IMG/VR virus record: IMGVR_UViG_2778261689_000003
Length of the DNA stretch: 8,891 bases
Source of the DNA: a virus
Taxonomy: Duplodnaviria; Heunggongvirae; Uroviricota; Caudoviricetes
Direction: 5' to 3' (one strand)
A program made the translations under genes and the position numbers. The notes below the pieces were generated by a model. The model was given only the letters and a program-made list of their open reading frames with translations. It was not told the DNA's origin and ran no database searches. Shown one piece after another: positions 1 through 8,891 of this stretch (the first letter of the stretch is position 1; every line of letters begins with the position of its first letter).

Positions 1-342
1 CTAATCGTGGGGGCAGGTCAGGAGTGCTATGTATATAATGCTATTTCTTAATTCAACAAACTTAATATTCTCAGCAATTAGATTTGAAAATGCACTCTCA
101 ATCATAATAGATAAATCAAAGCGACTTGCAGGAATGAGCCTTAAAAACTGCCATGGCTTTAAATAATCCACTAGTGATCTTGCTGGGTGTGTTACATTCA
201 AGTCAGTATCTATATTAAAGTGTTCAGGCATTTCAATAATATTTTTTTCTAGGACCCCCCTAATTACTTGAGTGCTTACCAATCCATTCAAATGAACATG
301 TAATTCTCCTTTATCCATCATTCGAGCTTCGTAAAGATCCAT
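1..342 (-). CDS. Adenosine/AMP-deaminase-fold (amidohydrolase superfamily) protein, N-terminal segment only (about 113 aa); possible truncated gene or pseudogene
   Basis: The supplied ORF 1..390 (-) contains the metal-binding signature ELHVHLNG near its N-terminus and ends in KFVELRNS, which matches the first ~110 residues of adenosine deaminase family proteins (E. coli Add has HRHLDG ... YVELRFSP). The in-frame stop TAG is the reverse complement of window positions 1-3, so the product is far shorter than the ~330 aa family. I prefer the start at the ATG complementary to 340-342 (SD-like AAGGT 7 nt upstream on the - strand) over the ORF-track start at 390, whose first 16 codons are Lys-rich AT-rich sequence. 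The locus is visibly AT-rich. Confidence 0.45.
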   Translation of the reverse strand: MDLYEARMMDKGELHVHLNGLVSTQVIRGVLEKNIIEMPEHFNIDTDLNVTHPARSLVDYLKPWQFLRLIPASRFDLSIMIESAFSNLIAENIKFVELRNSIIYIALLTCPHD

Positions 343-391
343 TTTAATTACCTTATATATCCAAACTCTTAATTTTCTCTTTTTTACCATA

Positions 392-401
392 GGATTAATC
401 C
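392..401. promoter_or_regulatory. Perfect 10-bp palindrome GGATTAATCC in the divergent intergenic region; candidate operator
   Basis: Read directly: GGATTAATCC is its own reverse complement. It lies between the deaminase-fold ORF and the TetR-like gene. The half-site GGATTAA recurs at 521-527. Confidence 0.25.
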
Positions 402-529
402 AAAATAAAGACCTTGTTGACTAAACCCTCATGTACAAAATGCACACTTACTCAAAAGGATCTGGAGGCAATCTCGACCTCCATGATTTAGTTCCTAGGG
501 ATAAGCAGAAATCTAGCACTGGATTAAAA

Positions 530-558
530 TTTAAAAATAATAATCAATAGGTTATAAT
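530..558 (+). promoter_or_regulatory. Candidate sigma70 promoter for the TetR-like gene (-35 TTTAAA at 530-535, 17-bp spacer, -10 TATAAT at 553-558)
   Basis: Perfect -10 hexamer TATAAT at 553-558; the -35 matches TTGACA at 4 of 6 positions with a 17-bp spacer. Sequence pattern only, no expression evidence. Confidence 0.25.
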
Positions 559-643
559 GGTTTTTATTCGCATCCATGGGATCTGCTGCTGCCCGCATGA
601 TGTTGGATGCGACGGCGCTGGCACGACCTCACCCGGTGAAACG

Positions 644-1090
644 ATGAAACGCGAAAGGGTTGTTCTTCGGGAAGGTGCAGTTGGACTTTCAATCGATGAC
701 GTTGCAAAAGAGGCTGGCGTCAGTAAGGCAACGGTAATGTACGATCATAAGTCAAAGCAAGATTTGCTCAGCGATCTCATCAGTCGCCTTATGCCAGTAG
801 AGGAGGAACGTGTTCAGCAAGCGATAGCGGAAAGTAATAATACCCCACATCCCGCACTCTATGGGCGAATTATTTCAGCCAGTAATGCTCTCAGTCATAC
901 TGAGAGAGCAGTAGTGCTGGCGGTCAGCGAATCGTTAACTAACGATACGAATATCAGGGACACCATGCGTTCCTGCACAAACAAAGATTTGGATGAGATA
1001 AAAAGAGGACCAAAACCAGACGTTGCCGTCCTGGTATATTTGGCGTTATCTGGTATCTACTGCCAAGAATTTTTTGATTTTTACAAATGA
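644..1090 (+). CDS. TetR-family-like HTH transcriptional regulator (short, about 148 aa)
   Basis: The segment LSIDDVAKEAGVSKATVMYDHKSKQDLLSDL matches the TetR N-terminal HTH signature (compare TetR [30 protein letters not shown]). Start chosen at ATG 644 (MKRERV), because the ORF-track start at 557 encodes an atypical Cys-rich leader (ICCCPHDVGCDG) and overlaps the candidate promoter. Helix 1 looks shortened and the C-terminal domain is small, so the protein may be degenerate. Stop TGA at 1088-1090. Confidence 0.55.
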   Translation: MKRERVVLREGAVGLSIDDVAKEAGVSKATVMYDHKSKQDLLSDLISRLMPVEEERVQQAIAESNNTPHPALYGRIISASNALSHTERAVVLAVSESLTNDTNIRDTMRSCTNKDLDEIKRGPKPDVAVLVYLALSGIYCQEFFDFYK

Positions 1091-1363
1091 TCTCCTGGCG
1101 AGCGAGATAAAATTATCGAAGGCATTCGCTGTTTGTATGAATCATACCCTTACAAGTCTGAATAAATAATGTCTCCGGGAATGACATTTCATGTGCGACT
1201 AATTCGCGATATTCCTATACGTAAAGGTCCGCTTTTGGCACAAAGTGGACAACCACGCTAGCTCTACCCTGTGCCACAAAATGTCAATTTGCATCTGAAC
1301 TAATGCACTTTAATCTCGTCACTTCAATAAATACCGAACATCCCCCTGATAAAACGACAATAT

Positions 1364-1741
1364 TCACTGCATAACTTCACTCTTCAGGCACTCGCGACAG
1401 ATTATGTTCAGACGCCTGTCGTAACGGCGTATTTCTCCGTCTGGTAATGACCAGATAAGGTCAGGATCAACCACAACCGGTTTCTTCACCTTTGTCCTTG
1501 ATAGTTTTTTGCGGGCGTTTTGCCAGTCTTTACGCGCCTGCTCAGACGGGAATAATCCGTAGCCTGAATTGTAAACATCACCACTGGCGACTAGTTCTCT
1601 GGCGAGAGTGCTTATGTAATACCTTGATGCACCGGTTTTAGCCTCCAGAGCCCGTAACGTCTCGCGACCGCTCAGAGGTACAAGTTCAACAACCTGTCCT
1701 TTAATTTTTTCTCGCTCTTCTGGTGTAAATACTTTTGCCAT
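1364..1741 (-). CDS. Hypothetical protein (125 aa) with an HTH-like segment; last gene of the leftward operon
   Basis: ORF-track frame 1364..1756 (-). Position 1754-1756 is a TTG codon, not ATG; the first ATG is complementary to 1739-1741 and is preceded by GGAGG at 5-nt spacing. The segment RETLRALEAKTGASRYYISTLAREL looks like an HTH. It starts 16 nt after the upstream gene's stop (1757-1759). No family recognised. Confidence 0.6.
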   Translation of the reverse strand: MAKVFTPEEREKIKGQVVELVPLSGRETLRALEAKTGASRYYISTLARELVASGDVYNSGYGLFPSEQARKDWQNARKKLSRTKVKKPVVVDPDLIWSLPDGEIRRYDRRLNIICRECLKSEVMQ

Positions 1742-1756
1742 AGGTGCCTCCGGCAA

Positions 1757-2518
1757 TCACTTTTCCGATGCAACATGGCGGGAAGAATCAGTAATCTGTC
1801 GTACAATATCCCTGTGCTTGTTCAACTCACGCAGCGCGGCGCAGACACGCTCCCACTTCTGGACATGATTTTTCGCCCGACGCAGTTCGCGGTTTGCCAT
1901 ATGCAGTGATGGTAAAACCAGGTCATCCGCTCGCGTTTCAGTAAACGATGGCAGCGACTGCACAATGTCCGCCACAGTTTCTGTTTTAATATCTTCCTGT
2001 GTTGCAGCCTCCTGTACTGGTAACGCAACACCTGCGGTCTGAGGAAAGGCCTTACCATCAGTTTCCGCTACCGATGCTGCTTTCGGCTCTGCTGGTAAAT
2101 TATCGCCCGGTATGCAGTAACGAAATTTACCGCCCTGATTTACGCGAATCAGACGACCTTTGCTGATTGCCATTGCCAGCGTTGAAGCCACTTTGCGTGA
2201 TGTGGTACCAAACAATGTAGCCAGCTCATCAGCCGTTTGTGGTCCTCGTTGTTCAATCGTCGCGGTTAAATCGCACTCTGAGATTTTCGCTACTGTTGCT
2301 GTGGTGATTTCTTCCGGCAGTTCTGCCTGCGCTGGCTGTTCCTGCTGAACATTGTTATCAGCCACACGCCAGGTGTACGCGCTTTTATCAACAAAACCAG
2401 CCTTTTTCAGTTCCCATAGTTCGTTCAGCACTTCTTCACGACTGATATCAAGTCGCGCAGCAAGTTCTATGGATGTGGCTTCTCCCATTGCTTTCAGTGC
2501 GTCAAAAACAGTCTCCAT
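1757..2518 (-). CDS. Hypothetical protein with two tandem winged-helix-like domains and a C-terminal helical region (253 aa from preferred start)
   Basis: ORF-track frame 1757..2569 (-). Preferred start is the ATG complementary to 2516-2518 ([13 protein letters not shown]), with GGGAGA 8 nt upstream and no overlap with the DnaC-like gene; the alternative ATG at 2569 would overlap that gene by 29 nt. Two wHTH-like segments are visible ([40 protein letters not shown] and [29 protein letters not shown]). Function unknown. Confidence 0.6.
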
Positions 2519-2540
2519 TAAATTTTTCTCCCGGTAAAAA

Positions 2541-3287
2541 TTACTTCGCAATTCCTGGCTGGACGACATTCGGACGCCAGCTCTCCCAGTTAAAATTCAC
2601 CCATCGCCCGCCGTTCATGGTCATGCGATCCATAATCCGCTCGCCGAGCAATGTTTTCATGGCCTCATAGTTCAGGTTTGTCAGCATCCCCACGCTGCGC
2701 ATCGACGCTGTCCGGCGATCAACAATCTGGTGCAGTACCACCTGCTCGTTTTTCGTCTCGCGCTGAATGCCAATTTCATCAAGAACCAGCAGATCCACTT
2801 CGCACAGTTCCCGCAAAAATTTTTCGCCTGACTGCCCATCGTCATAGCTGGCGTGCAGGGCACTCATAACATCAGCCACGGTAACCACAATCACTGTCTG
2901 ACCGTCTTTCAGCAGGCGATTCCCGATAGCTGCCGCTAAGTGGTTCTTCCCGGTACCAGGTTTTCCGCTGAACGCAAAATTTGTACACCCGATCATCAGT
3001 TCATCAGCGATGGATTTCGCCTGACTCAACGCGTATCGCTGCCCTTCGTTCTGCACCTGGTAATTCGAAAACGAGCATTTGCGGTGCAATGGCTGGATGC
3101 CAGAGCGATTCAGAATTTTTTCCACCCGCAACTGACGATTCTGACGGTTGATCTCCTCACAACGTTTCTGGCCTTCGGAAAGTTGCCACTCGCGCCACTC
3201 CGCTACCGTCTTGAATGGCGCGGTTACATGTGACGGGGCCAGTCTGCGGATACGTTCAAGAACATCGCCTGTCGCAATATTTTTCAT
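2541..3287 (-). CDS. DnaC-like AAA+ helicase loader (phage replication protein, Rac YdaV-like), 248 aa
   Basis: Walker [18 protein letters not shown] and Walker [10 protein letters not shown] are present. The whole length is collinear with E. coli DnaC as I recall it (N-terminal PFKT, NRSGI.PLH, SF.NY, MLTN.N.EEM..LLGER.MDRM). ATG complementary to 3285-3287; stop complementary to 2541-2543. Confidence 0.9.
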
Positions 3288-3293
3288 GGTCAG

Positions 3294-4082
3294 TTACCCC
3301 CTGAAGCCTGGCGGGATCGCACTATCCGGTAACGAGACGGTGTTAACCTGTCGGAGTAACGTCTCAGGTCGAACACCTTTCGGCGCGAACAAGCCCTGGT
3401 ATTCATTGGCGATGCTGTGTCGAATCACCTGCTCAGGTGAAAAACCCTGCTGGCGGAATTTTTCCAGCTCCCGTATCGCCCCGTTAGCGCCCTGCTCCGT
3501 TCGAATCGGTTTTCGCAATGCCTGGCGAAATTCAACCCACTCACGCCAAAGCGAGACAGAAATCCAGTTCGGCAAAGTAATATCCAGAGGGTCAAACTTT
3601 TTGACACCTCGATTCCCCCGGGGGGGATTTAGGGGGGGATCTGTTTTTAGATCTTTATCTGTATCTTTATTAGTTGCCTTTGTGTTGACATCATGTTCAA
3701 ACACCACTTCAACATCTGTTTGAACACCTGTTAAATTTCTCTCTTGTTTTGTTTGAACATCTGCTTCCTTTCTGCTTCTTCTGGCCTGAACAGATGCTTT
3801 TCCTGCGGCTGATTTTTTGGTTAATTTTTCCCTGACTGATGCCAGATCTTCCTCAATCCGAAGATGCACCCATTCCTCGCCGTTATCGCAAAAAAACTCC
3901 TGCAAGGATGGTTCAACATCAGCCCATCGCTCGTTAGTCAGACGGGCAATTTTTGCCAGCCTGTTTTTAGGTATTGGCTTTCCTGTTTGCCAGTAATTGA
4001 ACATCAGCAACAAATACGCACCATGCTCCTCTGCTGACAAATGCATGGTGTCAGCCAGGTAATCAGCTATGTACAGTTGCAT
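3294..4082 (-). CDS. DUF1376-type (Rac YdaU-like) putative phage replication initiator/organiser, 262 aa
   Basis: N-terminus [34 protein letters not shown] fits my recollection of the DUF1376 N-terminal domain. A charged low-complexity linker precedes a C-terminal W-rich domain ([19 protein letters not shown]...). It sits immediately upstream of the DnaC-like gene with a 6-nt gap, the position held by ydaU in K-12 Rac. ATG complementary to 4080-4082, with AGGA 9 nt upstream. Confidence 0.75.
3693..3796. repeat. Iteron-like cluster of related 9-13 bp motifs (GTTTGAACA[C/T]CTG and relatives) in direct and inverted orientation, inside the YdaU-like coding region
   Basis: Read directly: ATGTTCAAACA 3693-3703 (inverted), TTCAACATCTG 3708-3718, GTTTGAACACCTG 3718-3730, GTTTGAACATCTG 3751-3763, TGAACAGATG 3787-3796 (inverted). 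An AT-rich segment with ATCTTTAT x2 (3651-3670) and C/G homopolymer tracts (3615-3638) follow on the gene's downstream side. Confidence 0.4.
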
Positions 4083-6105
4083 GTATGGTAATCCTGGTAA
4101 TTCAAACCTGGGACTGATAACTGCTTTTTTCGAAGCATACCTGAACGCTGACTACACCGATCGAGGACTGCTGACAAAAGAGTGGATGAAGGGTTATCGT
4201 GTTTCACACATCACTCGCACGGCTTCCGGTGCTAATGCTGGCGGCGGAAACCTCACCGATCGCGGCGAAGGTTTCGTACACGATCTGACGTCACTGGCGC
4301 GCGACGTAGCCACTGGCGTACTGGCCCGTTCAATGGATCTGGACATCTATAACCTTCATCCGGCACACGCTAAACGCATTGAGGAAATTATCGCTGAAAA
4401 TAAACCGCCCTTTTCTGTTTTCCGCGACAAATTCATCACCATGCCTGGCGGGCTGGATTATTCCCGCGCCATCGTGGTTGCGTCCGTAAAAGAAGCACCA
4501 ATTGGGATCGAGGTCATCCCCGCGCACGTCACTGAATATCTGAACAAAGTACTGACTGAAACCGATCATGCCAACCCTGATCCGGAAATCGTGGATATTG
4601 CCTGCGGTCGCTCCTCTGCCCCGATGCCGCAGCGAGTAACAGAAGAAGGAAAACAGGATGATGAAGAAAAACCGCAACCATCTGGAACAACGGCAGTTGA
4701 ACAGGGAGAGGCTGAAACAATGGAACCGGACGCAACTGAACATCATCAGGACACGCAGCCGCTGGATGCTCAGTCACAGGTAAATTCTGTTGATGCGAAA
4801 TATCAGGAACTGCGGGCAGAACTCCATGAAGCCCGGAAAAACATTCCATCAAAAAATCCTGTCGATGACGATAAATTGCTTGCTGCATCACGTGGTGAAT
4901 TTGTTGACGGAATTAGCGACCCGAACGATCCGAAATGGGTAAAGGGGATCCAGACTCGCGATTGTGTGTACCAGAACCAGCCAGAAACGGAAAAAACCAG
5001 CCCAGATATGAATCAACCTGAGCCAGTAGTGCAACAGGAACCGGAAATAGCCTGCAATGCCTGCGGCCAGACTGGCGGGGATAACTGCCCTGACTGTGGT
5101 GCGGTGATGGGCGACGCAACATACCAGGAAACATTCGATGAAGAGAGTCAGGTTGAAGCTAAGGAAAATGATCCGGAGGAAATGGAAGGCGCTGAACATC
5201 CGCACAATGAGAATGCTGGCAGCGATCCGCATCGCGATTGCAGTGATGAAACTGGCGAAGTCGCAGATCCCGTAATCGTAGAAGACATAGAGCCAGGTAT
5301 TTATTACGGAATTTCGAATGAGAATTACCACGCGGGTCCCGGTATCAGTAAGTCTCAGCTCGATGACATTGCTGATACTCCGGCACTATATTTGTGGCGT
5401 AAAAATGCCCCCGTGGACACCACAAAGACAAAAACGCTCGATTTAGGAACTGCTTTCCACTGCCGGGTACTTGAACCGGAAGAATTCAGTAACCGCTTTA
5501 TCGTAGCACCTGAATTTAACCGCCGTACAAACGCCGGAAAAGAAGAAGAGAAAGCGTTTCTGATGGAATGCGCAAGCACAGGAAAAACGGTTATCACTGC
5601 GGAAGAAGGCCGGAAAATTGAACTCATGTATCAAAGCGTTATGGCTTTGCCGCTGGGGCAATGGCTTGTTAAAAGCGCCGGACACGCTGAATCATCAATT
5701 TACTGGGAAGATCCTGAAACAGGAATTTTGTGTCGGTGCCGTCCGGACAAAATTATCCCTGAATTTCACTGGATCATGGACGTGAAAACTACGGCGGATA
5801 TTCAACGATTCAAAACCGCTTATTACGACTACCGCTATCACGTTCAGGATGCATTCTACAGTGACGGTTATGAAGCACAGTTTGGAGTGCAGCCAACTTT
5901 CGTTTTTCTGGTTGCCAGCACAACTATTGAATGCGGACGTTATCCGGTTGAAATTTTCATGATGGGCGAAGAAGCAAAACTGGCAGGTCAACAGGAATAT
6001 CACCGCAATCTGCGAACCCTGTCTGACTGCCTGAATACCGATGAATGGCCAGCTATTAAGACATTATCACTGCCCCGCTGGGCTAAGGAATATGCAAATG
6101 ACTAA
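4069..6105 (+). CDS. recE: Exodeoxyribonuclease VIII (RecE), 5'-truncated form (678 aa ORF) retaining the C-terminal nuclease domain
   Basis: The translation matches E. coli Rac RecE as I remember it, from ...[17 protein letters not shown] through the acidic linker, a CxxC-x7-CxxC zinc ribbon ([16 protein letters not shown], nt 5053-5097) and the C-terminal end ...[12 protein letters not shown]. Full-length K-12 RecE is 866 aa, so roughly the first 190 residues are absent (approximate, from memory). The frame is closed upstream by TAA at 4060-4062; the first ATGs are 4069 and 4081, neither with a convincing SD. Stop TAA at 6103-6105 overlaps the recT start. Confidence 0.85.
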
Positions 6106-6907
6106 GCAACCACCAATCGCAAAAGCCGATCTGCAAAAAACTCAGGGAAACCGTGCACCAGCAGCAGTTAAAAATAGCGACGTGATTAGTTTTATTAACC
6201 AGCCATCAATGAAAGAGCAACTGGCAGCAGCTCTTCCACGCCATATGACGGCTGAACGTATGATCCGTATCGCCACCACAGAAATTCGTAAAGTTCCGGC
6301 GTTAGGAAACTGTGACACTATGAGTTTTGTCAGTGCGATCGTACAGTGTTCACAGCTCGGACTTGAGCCAGGTAGCGCCCTCGGTCATGCATATTTACTG
6401 CCTTTTGGTAATAAAAACGAAAAGAGCGGTAAAAAGAACGTTCAGCTAATCATTGGCTATCGCGGCATGATTGATCTGGCTCGCCGTTCTGGTCAAATCG
6501 CCAGCCTGTCAGCCCGTGTTGTCCGTGAAGGTGACGAGTTTAGCTTCGAATTTGGCCTTGATGAAAAGTTAATACACCGCCCGGGAGAAAACGAAGATGC
6601 CCCGGTTACCCACGTCTATGCTGTCGCAAGACTGAAAGACGGAGGTACTCAGTTTGAAGTTATGACGCGCAAACAGATTGAGCTGGTGCGCAGCCTGAGT
6701 AAAGCTGGTAATAACGGGCCGTGGGTAACTCACTGGGAAGAAATGGCAAAGAAAACGGCTATTCGTCGCCTGTTCAAATATTTGCCCGTATCAATTGAGA
6801 TCCAGCGTGCAGTATCAATGGATGAAAAGGAACCACTGACAATCGATCCTGCAGATTCCTCTGTATTAACCGGGGAATACAGTGTAATCGATAATTCAGA
6901 GGAATAA
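6098..6907 (+). CDS. recT: RecT single-strand annealing protein, 269 aa
   Basis: The translation from [28 protein letters not shown]... to ...VIDNSEE matches E. coli Rac RecT. Start is the ATG at 6098 inside the overlap ATGACTAA with the recE stop, not the ORF-track start at 6041, which lies within recE. Stop TAA at 6905-6907. Confidence 0.95.
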
Positions 6908-6914
6908 TTCAGCC

Positions 6915-6950
6915 TGGCGGTGTAATGCACCGCCAACTTGAAATATTTTT
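6915..6950 (+). terminator. GC-rich stem-loop (8-bp stem TGGCGGTG/CACCGCCA, 5-nt loop) followed 9 nt later by T6; possible weak terminator or attenuator between recT and ralR
   Basis: Read directly: the stem is 6915-6922 paired with 6928-6935, and the T-run is 6945-6950. The T-tract is not immediately adjacent to the stem, so this is not a canonical intrinsic terminator. Confidence 0.25.
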
Positions 6951-6963
6951 TATGAGAAAAATT

Positions 6964-7158
6964 ATGAGATATGACAATGTTAAACCATGTCCATTTTGTG
7001 GTTGTCCATCAGTAACGGTGAAAGCCATTTCAGGATATTACCGAGCGAAGTGTAACGGATGCGAATCCCGAACCGGTTATGGTGGAAGTGAAAAAGAAGC
7101 ACTCGAAAGATGGAATAAACGAACCACTGGAAATAATAATGGAGGTGTTCATGTATAA
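6964..7158 (+). CDS. ralR: RalR / Lar-family restriction-alleviation zinc-ribbon protein (type I toxin in Rac), 64 aa
   Basis: The translation MRYDNVKPCPFCGCPSVTVKAISGYYRAKCNGCESRTGYGGSEKEALERWNKRTTGNNNGGVHV, with CxxCGC ... CxxC cysteines, matches K-12 RalR as I recall it. The start is taken at ATG 6964; the ORF-track frame extends upstream to 6925 without support. Confidence 0.85.
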   Translation: MRYDNVKPCPFCGCPSVTVKAISGYYRAKCNGCESRTGYGGSEKEALERWNKRTTGNNNGGVHV

Positions 7159-7360
7159 AATTACCGCCACTATTGAAAAGGAAGGTGGCACTCCTACTAA
7201 CTGGACAAGATATTCAAAATCTAAACTAACGAAATCAGAATGCGAAAAAATGCTCTCAGGTAAAAAAGAAGCAGGCGTTTCCAGAGAGCAGAAAGTAAAA
7301 CTGATAAATTTTAATTGCGAGAAACTTCAGTCCTCGAGAATTGCATTGTATTCAAATTAA
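7151..7360 (+). CDS. ydaC: YdaC-like small Rac prophage protein, 69 aa
   Basis: ATG 7151 is preceded by GGAGG (7141-7145) at 5-nt spacing and overlaps the ralR 3' end by 8 nt. The product MYKITATIEKEGGTPTNWTRYSK... matches my recollection of Rac YdaC. Stop TAA at 7358-7360. Confidence 0.8.
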   Translation: MYKITATIEKEGGTPTNWTRYSKSKLTKSECEKMLSGKKEAGVSREQKVKLINFNCEKLQSSRIALYSN

Positions 7361-7371
7361 AACTTCATAGC

Positions 7372-7387
7372 TGATTATTAATAATCA
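7372..7387. promoter_or_regulatory. Perfect 16-bp AT-rich palindrome TGATTATTAATAATCA upstream of the xis-like gene; candidate operator or protein-binding site
   Basis: Read directly: the sequence is its own reverse complement. It sits in the 78-bp ydaC-xis intergenic region, 52 bp upstream of the xis ATG. Confidence 0.3.
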
Positions 7388-7438
7388 ACATCGGGCGTCA
7401 ATTTCAGTCTAACATTGGCGCCTGCCAGAGGTGATGCG

Positions 7439-7654
7439 ATGGCACAAGTAATCTTTAATGAAGAGTGGATGGTTGAATACGGCCTGATGCTTCGCACTGG
7501 TCTGGGGGCCAGACAAATTGAAGCATACCGCCAGAACTGTTGGGTGGAGGGCTTCCACTTCAAACGAGTATCTCCTTTAGGTAAGCCAGACAGCAAACGA
7601 GGGATTATCTGGTACAACTATCCAAAGATAAATCAGTTTATCAAAGACTCATGA
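7439..7654 (+). CDS. xisR: Excisionase-like protein (Rac YdaQ/XisR-like), 71 aa
   Basis: ATG 7439 is preceded by GAGGTG at 5-nt spacing; the ORF-track start at 7415 is a TTG. The product [44 protein letters not shown]... matches Rac YdaQ as I recall it. Stop TGA at 7652-7654 is 1 nt before the integrase ATG. Confidence 0.8.
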
Positions 7655-7655
7655 T

Positions 7656-8891
7656 ATGTCTAAATTACCAACAGGTGTCGAGATTAGAGGTAGATACATT
7701 CGCATCTGGTTCATGTTTCGAGGAAAACGATGTCGGGAAACATTAAAAGGCTGGGAGATTACAAACAGTAATATTAAAAAGGCCGGAAATTTAAGAGCGC
7801 TGATAGTTCATGAAATAAACTCCGGTGAATTTGAGTATTTAAGACGTTTTCCCCAGTCCAGCACTGGGGCAAAAATGGTGACAACGAGAGTCATAAAAAC
7901 GTTCGGAGAGCTTTGTGATATCTGGACAAAAATTAAAGAGACAGAGTTAACAACAAACACAATGAAGAAAACGAAATCACAATTAAAAACACTCAGAATA
8001 ATAATTTGTGAAAGTACCCCGATATCACATATTCGTTATAGCGATATCTTAAACTACCGGAATGAACTGCTGCATGGAGAAACGCTTTACCTGGATAATC
8101 CAAGATCCAACAAAAAAGGAAGAACCGTGCGCACAGTTGATAACTATATCGCCCTGCTCTGTTCGCTGTTGCGTTTTGCGTATCAGTCGGGATTTATATC
8201 AACCAAACCATTTGAAGGAGTAAAAAAATTACAGCGAAACAGAATAAAGCCTGATCCGTTATCTAAAACAGAATTCAATGCATTAATGGAAAGTGAAAAA
8301 GGACAGAGCCAGAACTTGTGGAAATTTGCCGTTTACTCAGGACTTCGTCACGGGGAACTGGCAGCTCTGGCGTGGGAGGATGTGGATCTCGAAAAGGGAA
8401 TAGTGAATGTCAGAAGAAACCTGACGATACTTGATATGTTCGGTCCCCCAAAAACAAATGCCGGGATCCGAACAGTAACACTACTGCAGCCTGCTCTTGA
8501 AGCACTGAAGGAGCAATACAAACTGACCGGGCATCATCGCAAAAGCGAAATCACCTTTTATCATCGGGAGTACGGCAGAACCGAAAAGCAAAAACTGCAT
8601 TTTGTTTTCATGCCCAGGGTGTGTAACGGAAAACAAAAACCTTATTACTCGGTAAGCAGTTTGGGGGCAAGGTGGAATGCAGCAGTAAAACGTGCTGGTA
8701 TTCGCCGCCGTAATCCGTACCATACGCGGCATACTTTTGCCTGCTGGCTGTTGACGGCAGGAGCGAACCCGGCATTTATAGCCAGCCAAATGGGGCATGA
8801 AACTGCGCAGATGGTGTATGAAATTTACGGTATGTGGATTGATGACATGAACGACGAACAGATAGCCATGTTGAATGCGCGGTTATCGTAG
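7656..8891 (+). CDS. intR: Tyrosine-type site-specific integrase (Rac IntR-like), 411 aa
   Basis: N-terminus MSKLPTGVEIRGRYIRIWFMFRGKRCRETLKGW and the C-terminal catalytic region (RHGELAALAWEDVD, H-x-x-R in NPYHTRHTFACWLL, and QMGHETAQMVYEIYG carrying the nucleophilic Tyr context) are present. It is preceded by a xis-like gene, and its stop TAG is the final 3 bases of the window. Confidence 0.95.
   Translation: MSKLPTGVEIRGRYIRIWFMFRGKRCRETLKGWEITNSNIKKAGNLRALIVHEINSGEFEYLRRFPQSSTGAKMVTTRVIKTFGELCDIWTKIKETELTTNTMKKTKSQLKTLRIIICESTPISHIRYSDILNYRNELLHGETLYLDNPRSNKKGRTVRTVDNYIALLCSLLRFAYQSGFISTKPFEGVKKLQRNRIKPDPLSKTEFNALMESEKGQSQNLWKFAVYSGLRHGELAALAWEDVDLEKGIVNVRRNLTILDMFGPPKTNAGIRTVTLLQPALEALKEQYKLTGHHRKSEITFYHREYGRTEKQKLHFVFMPRVCNGKQKPYYSVSSLGARWNAAVKRAGIRRRNPYHTRHTFACWLLTAGANPAFIASQMGHETAQMVYEIYGMWIDDMNDEQIAMLNARLS

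Follow-up and report, generated by a model that had tools for sequence, protein, structure and literature searches.

The left end of an 8,891-base stretch of viral DNA (IMG/VR record IMGVR_UViG_2778261689_000003, here called the window) raises the question of what a short open reading frame (ORF) with adenosine deaminase (ADA) motifs is, and whether the divergent TetR-like gene beside it is its regulator. With a probability of roughly 0.9, the short ORF is the 5′ third of komA, that is, a remnant of the known Kongming defense system truncated by an insertion sequence (IS), and it lies beside a decayed tetR. The ORF listing and a comparison with complete Escherichia coli genomes show that the window is one arm (integrase-to-replication) of an E. 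coli Rac-type prophage, with the komA/tetR region at its far left, beyond a DUF977 gene. Among the matches listed, positions 20–8891 are 99.9–100% identical to the Rac prophages of the best-matching complete E. coli genomes, and bases 1–19 match no E. coli genome.

The longest ORF in this region occupies positions 1–390 of the minus strand (129 amino acids), has its stop codon at bases 1–3, and contains the motifs GELHVHLNG and VELRNS. The methionine codon at 342 is the likelier start and gives a product of 113 amino acids. It is preceded 8 nucleotides upstream by a Shine-Dalgarno-like site (TAAGGT), it is the RefSeq start, and counting KomA from this methionine matches the published His15/His17 numbering. 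The 113-residue product is a called gene in the source assembly (GCA_002226295.1), and the 129-residue product is not on record in an exact look-up. Because the ATG at 388–390 has no Shine-Dalgarno-like site upstream, the 16 residues preceding Met-342 are probably untranslated.

By DNA identity and by Pfam, positions 20–342 (minus strand) are the 5′ remnant of komA, codons 1–108. The fragment aligns with positions 2–94 of the 330-position A_deaminase profile (E = 1.9e-5; 24.3 bits, which does not reach the gathering score of 27), and the full-length allele matches the same family with E = 1.8e-46. The 100% identical DNA runs on into a complete komA of 326 amino acids in strains BR1220 (L001) and EC-07 (L002), and residues 1–108 of the fragment are identical to those of intact KomA. 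The metal-binding pair His15/His17 (HVH) is kept, and two later motifs of the intact protein, HAGE at residue 202 and SDNP at residue 282, are missing. The deaminase barrel is incomplete, ending at residue 108 and followed by five foreign residues.

The foreign residues stem from ISSen4, a member of the IS3 family that is inserted at komA codon 108/109. Positions 1–20 (minus strand) are the terminal inverted repeat of this element and read TGACCTGCCCCCACGATTAG on that strand. The truncated ORF owes its last five codons (TCPHD) and its TAG stop to this repeat, and the 113-residue product consists of 108 KomA residues plus TCPHD. Base 20 can be assigned to either the IS terminus or komA. At the junction, the intact allele reads ...gaaatgttatta directly followed by aggagtgct..., and the window reads ctaatcgtgggggcaggtc followed by the same aggagtgct. 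The 19-mer of the IS end (from the reverse complement of window 1–20, TGACCTGCCCCCACGATTAG) occurs at 28 loci in the genome collection, mostly enterobacterial and often near contig ends. This 19-mer ends a 1.2-kb element, named “IS3-like element ISSen4” in RefSeq (1228-bp match), and the terminal inverted repeat, TGACCTGCCCCC..., runs on into the sequence of this element. Compared with other inactivating insertions of ISSen4, nothing is unusual here: the exact terminal sequence of the element abuts komA.

These results bear on what the sequence-only reading had said about the ORF. It had recognized the ADA-type motifs on the minus strand, had taken the ORF for the N-terminal fragment of an enzyme with the adenosine deaminase fold, and had suspected a decaying remnant rather than a complete gene, all of which agrees with a komA truncated by ISSen4. 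The stop codon at positions 1–3 exists as described; it belongs to the IS end and is not the stop of the deaminase gene. The suggestion that the rest of the fold might continue in another frame, through a frameshift or a fusion, did not hold, the cause of the truncation being the ISSen4 insertion. The proposed look at the upstream continuation in related genomes found the full-length 326-residue gene there, and not the same truncated fragment.

Kongming is a three-gene operon that encodes a PF00962 adenosine deaminase, a PF01725 HAM1-like protein, and a PF13289 SIR2-like protein, and the characterized operon was cloned from E. coli NCTC13216 (Zeng et al., bioRxiv 10.1101/2024.12.20.629578). 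KomA deaminates dAMP or dADP, and the synthesis of dITP from the KomA product is completed by a deoxynucleotide monophosphate kinase of the phage together with the host NDK (10.1101/2024.12.20.629578; PMC13454610). The dITP is bound by KomB, a catalytically dead HAM1-like protein; binding remodels the KomB–KomC filament and turns on the SIR2 NADase, and the depletion of NAD+ kills or arrests the infected cell, which aborts the infection (10.1101/2024.12.20.629578; PMC13454610). The intact system protects against phages that encode deoxynucleotide kinases (10.1101/2024.12.20.629578; PMC13454610). Structures of KomBC are available (PDB codes 8zsf and 8zsg; PMC13454610).

Downstream of komA in BR1220 and EC-07, the same operon contains a Ham1p_like gene (184 amino acids) followed by a SIR2_2 gene (264 amino acids). 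The first product from BR1220 aligns with the “KomB” chain of PDB code 8zsg over 184 of 184 residues (E = 1.5e-123), and the second with the “KomC” chain of PDB code 8zsf over 264 of 264 residues (E = 2.5e-177), with a slightly better score than the H146N mutant chain. All residues named in the Kongming paper are present, namely His15 and His17 of KomA and, in the BR1220 proteins, Asn9, Lys12, and Glu15 of KomB and His146 of KomC. In this KomB, which lies outside the window, the catalytic aspartate is replaced by His65 and the binding residues Asn9, Lys12, and Glu15 are kept. Judged by sequence, the deaminase ORF is komA of the Kongming system, because the operon partners match the solved KomB and KomC structures over their full lengths and because all published residues are found at the same numbers.

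The window copy shares with Kongming KomA the 108 identical codons, His15/His17, the operon order komA-komB-komC, the AT-rich composition, and the location in a prophage. It differs in that one third of the gene is left, fused to five IS-encoded residues, with komB and komC outside the window. Of the three-gene operon, the window thus holds komA codons 1–108 only, whereas BR1220 and EC-07 carry it complete. Kongming itself is already known, and the locus is an inactivated remnant of a characterized system. In KomA, His15 and His17 (HxH) are essential, and active-site mutants lose defense (10.1101/2024.12.20.629578). Because these published mutations abolish defense, we infer that the 113-residue fragment is not the functional enzyme and that Kongming is off in the source strain.

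The left end of the window is thus the remainder of a ∼3.5-kb cassette of komC-komB-komA and a divergent tetR in a Rac-type prophage. ISSen4 sits in komA at codon 108/109 and leaves a 113-residue peptide, and the loss of komA would have turned Kongming off in the source strain. The passenger tetR has decayed as well, through an insertion of 8 bp that shifts the frame and through a nonsense codon (TGA).

Both lesions of tetR can be located by comparison with an intact 192-residue allele (P0002) on a metagenome contig (L041). The residual tetR ORF (644–1090, plus strand) encodes 148 amino acids, compared with 178–192 amino acids in its homologues; it keeps the helix-turn-helix (HTH), without the start of helix 1, and ends 24 residues early. 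The original N-terminal frame is orphaned at 576–647 (plus strand), where it starts with an ATG at 576, reads MGSAAARMMLDATALARPHPVKR as does the N terminus of the 192-residue allele, and stops at 645–647. In the DNA alignment with the intact allele, an 8-bp insertion, an imperfect tandem copy (TGAAACGA TGAAACGC; 637–652, plus strand), shifts the frame and generates the ATG at 644. The same length difference of 8 bases is seen in the BLAST alignment of the metagenome contig with the BR1220 locus. At the other end, the codon at 1088–1090 (plus strand) is a nonsense TGA in place of the TGG (Trp) of the intact allele; Providencia has TGC (Cys) there. Behind it lies the orphaned 3′ end, still in frame (1091–1165, plus strand), with 24 codons (SPGERDKIIEGIRCLYESYPYKSE) and a stop that match the C termini of P0002–P0004.

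The family assignment of the 148-residue product reflects this damage. TetR_N matches with 30.8 bits (cut-off 24) at profile positions 11–45 of 47, helix 1 being cut by the frameshift. TetR_C_28 reaches 22.3 bits at positions 15–76 of 96, under the cut-off of 26.4, and is matched over its cut-off by intact alleles at positions 14–90 or 14–92. The C-terminal ligand-binding and dimerization domain is incomplete, as the TGA removes 24 residues. The TetR-like ORF is present at 644–1090 as described, and the gene is not an intact or conserved regulator. Like classical TetR/AcrR repressors (TetR-tetA, AcrR-acrAB), it has an N-terminal HTH of the TetR_N type, matched only in part here, a C terminus of the TetR_C_28 type, and a divergent orientation. 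Unlike them, the window copy has lost both ends through mutation, lacks a demonstrable operator, is tied to Kongming in one near-identical cassette only, and is dispensable in the published construct. The tetR gene is now a pseudogene-like remnant that most likely no longer regulates anything.

Whether tetR ever belonged to Kongming can be judged from the spread of the cassette. The genes tetR and komCBA occur together in 81 of 5,426 complete E. coli genomes as one clonal cassette of at least 99% identity, and tetR is at least 99% identical to the window in all 81 E. coli genomes that have the gene. In these 81 genomes, the DNA of the window runs on into a full komA-komB-komC. The cassette reaches from ∼280 bp beyond komC to window position ∼1247 and comprises roughly 3.5 kb with komC-komB-komA and the divergent tetR. 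Its right-hand end as a mobile unit lies at 1166–1250, where the homology to Providencia and to the metagenome contig stops (∼1247–1250). At 96–98% nucleotide identity the cassette is also present on the metagenome contig and, in Providencia rettgeri, in an integrase island (L039), and a Klebsiella CbtA/CbeA island (L053) has the same tetR-komABC order with a KomA that is 98% identical. The earlier proposal of an AT-rich, moron-like accessory cassette is borne out by this komCBA-tetR unit in the Rac prophage. Its copies are so nearly identical that they do not represent independent associations of tetR with Kongming.

In Serratia, Vibrio, and Pseudomonas, whose Kongming loci have diverged (KomA 57–69% identical), no TetR neighbor is found. 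The recurring upstream neighbors there are a LEM-3-like GIY-YIG protein in Serratia (L043 3099–3869), a 506-residue protein with a cytidine/dCMP-deaminase domain (MafB19-deam) in Vibrio (L047 2119–3639), and a type I restriction HsdR and a YgjP-like protein in Pseudomonas (L049 1–3874). Conversely, intact TetR relatives (∼50–55% identity) adjoin unrelated genes and no Kongming. The base composition changes just upstream of tetR, with a step in GC fraction from 0.32 to 0.47: it is 0.334 for 20–342 and 0.318 for 343–584, compared with 0.465 in the tetR region and 0.472 in the rest of the window. The AT-rich left end had been noticed correctly in the sequence-only reading. Finally, defense was obtained with the three genes and the native promoter alone, and a regulator is never mentioned (10.1101/2024.12.20.629578). 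From the lack of TetR at diverged Kongming loci, the unrelated contexts of its relatives, the GC step, the defense by three genes, and the lack of the DNA motif found with the relatives (see below), we conclude that tetR is a passenger of the cassette lineage and not a Kongming component.

An ancestral regulatory role for TetR is possible but unsupported. In its fullest form, this explanation holds that the intact 192-residue TetR of the type on the metagenome contig truly repressed komABC, and that the later decay in E. coli and Providencia reflects either selection for constitutive expression or drift once the system had lost its value. It draws on three mobile-element contexts in which tetR falls within the limits of the cassette and on the independent damage to tetR, which is an 8-bp insertion plus TGA in E. 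coli and a 203-bp replacement at the same spot in Providencia. The Providencia lesion (L039 6849–7051) is an unrelated segment with an Ogr/Delta zinc-finger fragment on the opposite strand, exactly at the position of the E. coli insertion. However, at 96–98% identity the co-occurrence in these copies represents one recent event and not a repeated association, and the difference in GC (0.35 versus 0.47) suggests a chance juxtaposition. Moreover, helix 1 of the “intact” allele itself carries 10 extra residues, with a proline among them, when compared with P0009–P0011, its TetR_N match begins only at profile position 11, and the cassette lacks an operator motif of the native type. We regard an ancestral repressor as unlikely. 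That the 192-residue protein is a dedicated repressor of komABC, which would make this a transcriptionally gated variant of Kongming, appears slightly less probable again. If it were true, the repeated decay of tetR and the frequent IS insertions in komABC would record how selection in E. coli acted on what the system costs.

A model along the lines of the sequence-only reading has a working TetR in the window, which binds the palindrome GGATTAATCC and a half-site and regulates the divergent deaminase as an inducible accessory module. The divergent arrangement, a TetR_N HTH over the Pfam cut-off, the common travel of tetR and komCBA in E. coli, Providencia, and Klebsiella elements, the intact 192-residue allele adjoining komA, and a promoter-like match facing tetR are in its favor. 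Against it stand the breakage of both genes in the window, the absence of TetR from diverged loci, the defense conferred by the three cloned genes alone, and the properties of the intergenic DNA itself.

The DNA that separates komA from the ancestral start of tetR (343–575) is AT-rich (∼32% GC), is 96–98% conserved in the metagenome and Providencia copies, and presumably holds the native komA promoter; a simple sigma-70 consensus scan of its minus strand gave no match. Facing tetR, a sigma-70-like promoter (TTTAAA-17 nucleotides-TATAAT; 530–558, plus strand) matches by consensus only, with two such matches found and 1.2 expected. The repeats that had been pointed out are present as placed, and dinucleotide shuffles of the intergenic DNA (242 bp) show most of them to be at chance level. 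A perfect palindrome of 10 bp, such as GGATTAATCC (392–401), is expected 0.40 times per shuffle (P = 0.32). It is not conserved either, being broken in the two closest cassette copies (GGAATAATCC on the metagenome contig and GGTAATAATCT in Providencia) despite ∼97% identity in the rest of the region. The GGATTAA half-site (521–527) occurs 3 times in the window, with 1.2 expected and at least 3 in 23 of 200 shuffles.

The third element, the GC-rich hairpin TGGAGG-9 nucleotides-CCTCCA (463–483, minus strand), has 7 pairs and a 7-nucleotide loop in the tool count and is terminator-like with a weak T tail. Any 6-bp stem is expected 1.2 times in the intergenic shuffles; the GC-rich stem is mildly unusual, with P of ∼0.03 in a test picked after the stem had been seen, and a terminator scan found 1 where 0.4 were expected. 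Read on the komA strand, the hairpin precedes komA by ∼120 nucleotides, and three of three cassette copies have both arms of the stem without a change. It could insulate komA from read-through or belong to the leader.

The upstream regions of intact TetR relatives were compared as well. Intact TetR relatives on two unrelated contigs (L037 2130–2150 and L040 2380–2425) have in common ATACGATCGTTCG, with the core palindrome ACGATCGT, ∼50 bp upstream of the start codons of both genes, and a second, inverted copy is present in L040. ATACGATCGTTCG is a candidate operator of that TetR subfamily. Its palindromic form has no site within three mismatches anywhere in the window, and the core is absent from the cassette loci. 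From sequence alone, the window shows no palindromic operator as known for the TetR family, the one palindrome being at chance level and the motif of the relatives absent. That the short palindromes are operators is unsupported by the evidence found, and regulation of the divergent enzyme by a working TetR is highly improbable, given a damaged TetR, a chance-level and unconserved palindrome, and no TetR at diverged loci.

Even less credence can be given to the idea that the truncation is an assembly artefact, in which a contig end was misjoined to IS reads and komA is really intact. The source contig (NLGT01000004.1, GCA_002226295.1) stops 56 bp past window base 1, inside the IS, and the junction is only 76 bp from this draft contig end, which is what one might find after a misjoin. 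Nonetheless, contigs that end inside a repeat are typical of short-read assemblies, and a true insertion would place the junction precisely where it is, at the IS terminus (TG...). The final 76 bases of the contig are identical (76 of 76) to an ISSen4 copy in another locus (L005). Furthermore, the same 113-residue product is found on two contigs, with NLGT01000004.1 listed in two samples, and IS insertions in the cassette are frequent among closed genomes. In the search of viral contigs, no IS/komA junction was found.

That the deaminase comes from another ADA-based defense system (RADAR RdrB or CRISPR-associated Cad1) or is a housekeeping adenosine deaminase has a negligible probability: the full-length protein does match PADLOC CARF_ADA over the deaminase domain (E = 2.9e-36) and also housekeeping ADA structures, but it is a deaminase barrel of 326 residues without a CARF domain, matches no RdrB model, has no RdrA neighbor, heads an operon in which both partner proteins align from end to end with solved KomB and KomC chains, and, scored on the fragment, falls far under the cut-off of the NCBIfam adenosine deaminase equivalog. 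These readings were rejected on the lack of RdrA, RdrB, and CARF, the weak equivalog score, and the KomB/KomC partners. The PADLOC release used (2023) is older than Kongming and gives domain-level matches only (CARF_ADA and the ThsA SIR2 domain); it has no match for KomB, does not name Kongming, and lends RADAR no support. RADAR is characterized by a large RdrB together with the AAA+ ATPase RdrA, and here there is neither a PADLOC match to RdrB nor an ATPase neighbor. RdrB and Cad1 resemble KomA in the adenosine deaminase fold and in making inosine nucleotides for anti-phage defense. They differ in being much larger effectors that convert ATP/dATP to ITP/dITP with RdrA or CARF partners, whereas KomA is a stand-alone signal generator of 326 residues with dAMP/dADP as substrates and with no RdrA or CARF present. 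The link to anti-phage defense drawn in the sequence-only reading is real and leads to Kongming; the comparison with RADAR finds no RdrA/RdrB signature.

Some points weigh against a Kongming remnant with a passenger tetR. The DNA past the IS lies beyond the contig end, and the 3′ part of komA, komB, and komC may have been kept on another contig, as after a simple insertion, or may have been deleted. For the 113-residue fragment and the 148-residue TetR, the presumed loss of function draws on what is known of the two families and on published mutations at other residues. The cassette including tetR has been kept at 96–98% nucleotide identity in three mobile-element contexts, and an intact 192-residue allele exists. 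The putative native operator motif, lastly, is based on only two independent relatives.

The remainder of the window consists of Rac genes. The integrase gene intR is at 7656–8891, and the other Rac genes are xisR, rcbA, ralR, recT, a 5′-truncated recE, ydaU, ydaV, a DUF1627 gene, and the DUF977 gene. The type I toxin-antitoxin pair RalR/RalA of Rac is intact (7157–7335, minus strand, and 6964–7158, plus strand), with a full-length Rfam match (RF02694, 225 bits) for the RalA antitoxin small RNA at 7157–7335. An Rfam scan of window positions 1–1400 found no RNA family. At 4069–4082, a deletion fuses ydaU (3294–4082, minus strand) directly to the 5′-truncated recE-like ORF (4069–6105, plus strand); it takes out ydaT, ydaS, racR, ydaF, sieB, kilR, ydaE, racC, and the N terminus of recE, all of which are present in BR1220. 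Several complete genomes share this deletion, EC-07, L9, and HL15 among them, and RefSeq lists their recE as a pseudogene. In intact Rac prophages, the Kongming cassette is separated from the DUF1367/DUF1364/DUF1133 late-region genes by a DUF1971 (TehB-like) gene (L001 5897–6235), which may be another moron.

The same komCBA-tetR cassette has suffered several independent lesions in other E. coli strains (see L003 7156–8323). HL15 and SF10 have an IS1 together with a ∼6-kb deletion in it, and strain 300081 has an IS1B in it. An IS2 is present in the cassette of A134_1EC and 2024CK-00475, with an IS3 inside tetR in A134_1EC, and in FDN-24 a probable 1-bp frameshift splits komA. These insertions of IS1, IS2, and IS3 represent the same process as the one described here. 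In a further Klebsiella pneumoniae island (L052 2188–7674), komA (98% identical) and komB are present without a called SIR2 gene behind them, and the 2.8 kb in front, the expected place of tetR, is free of called genes; this island may be another decayed copy.

Outside annotation, the finding matters little. The annotated 113-residue “adenosine deaminase / amidohydrolase family protein” and the 148- or 177-residue “TetR/AcrR regulator” are gene remnants and should not be counted as a functional defense system or regulator. The passenger tetR goes unmentioned in the Kongming preprint (10.1101/2024.12.20.629578) and would deserve some slight attention should the intact allele turn out to regulate. 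For the biology of the prophage, the recurrent knock-outs of the Rac Kongming cassette by insertion sequences fit a rapid gain and loss of abortive-infection systems.

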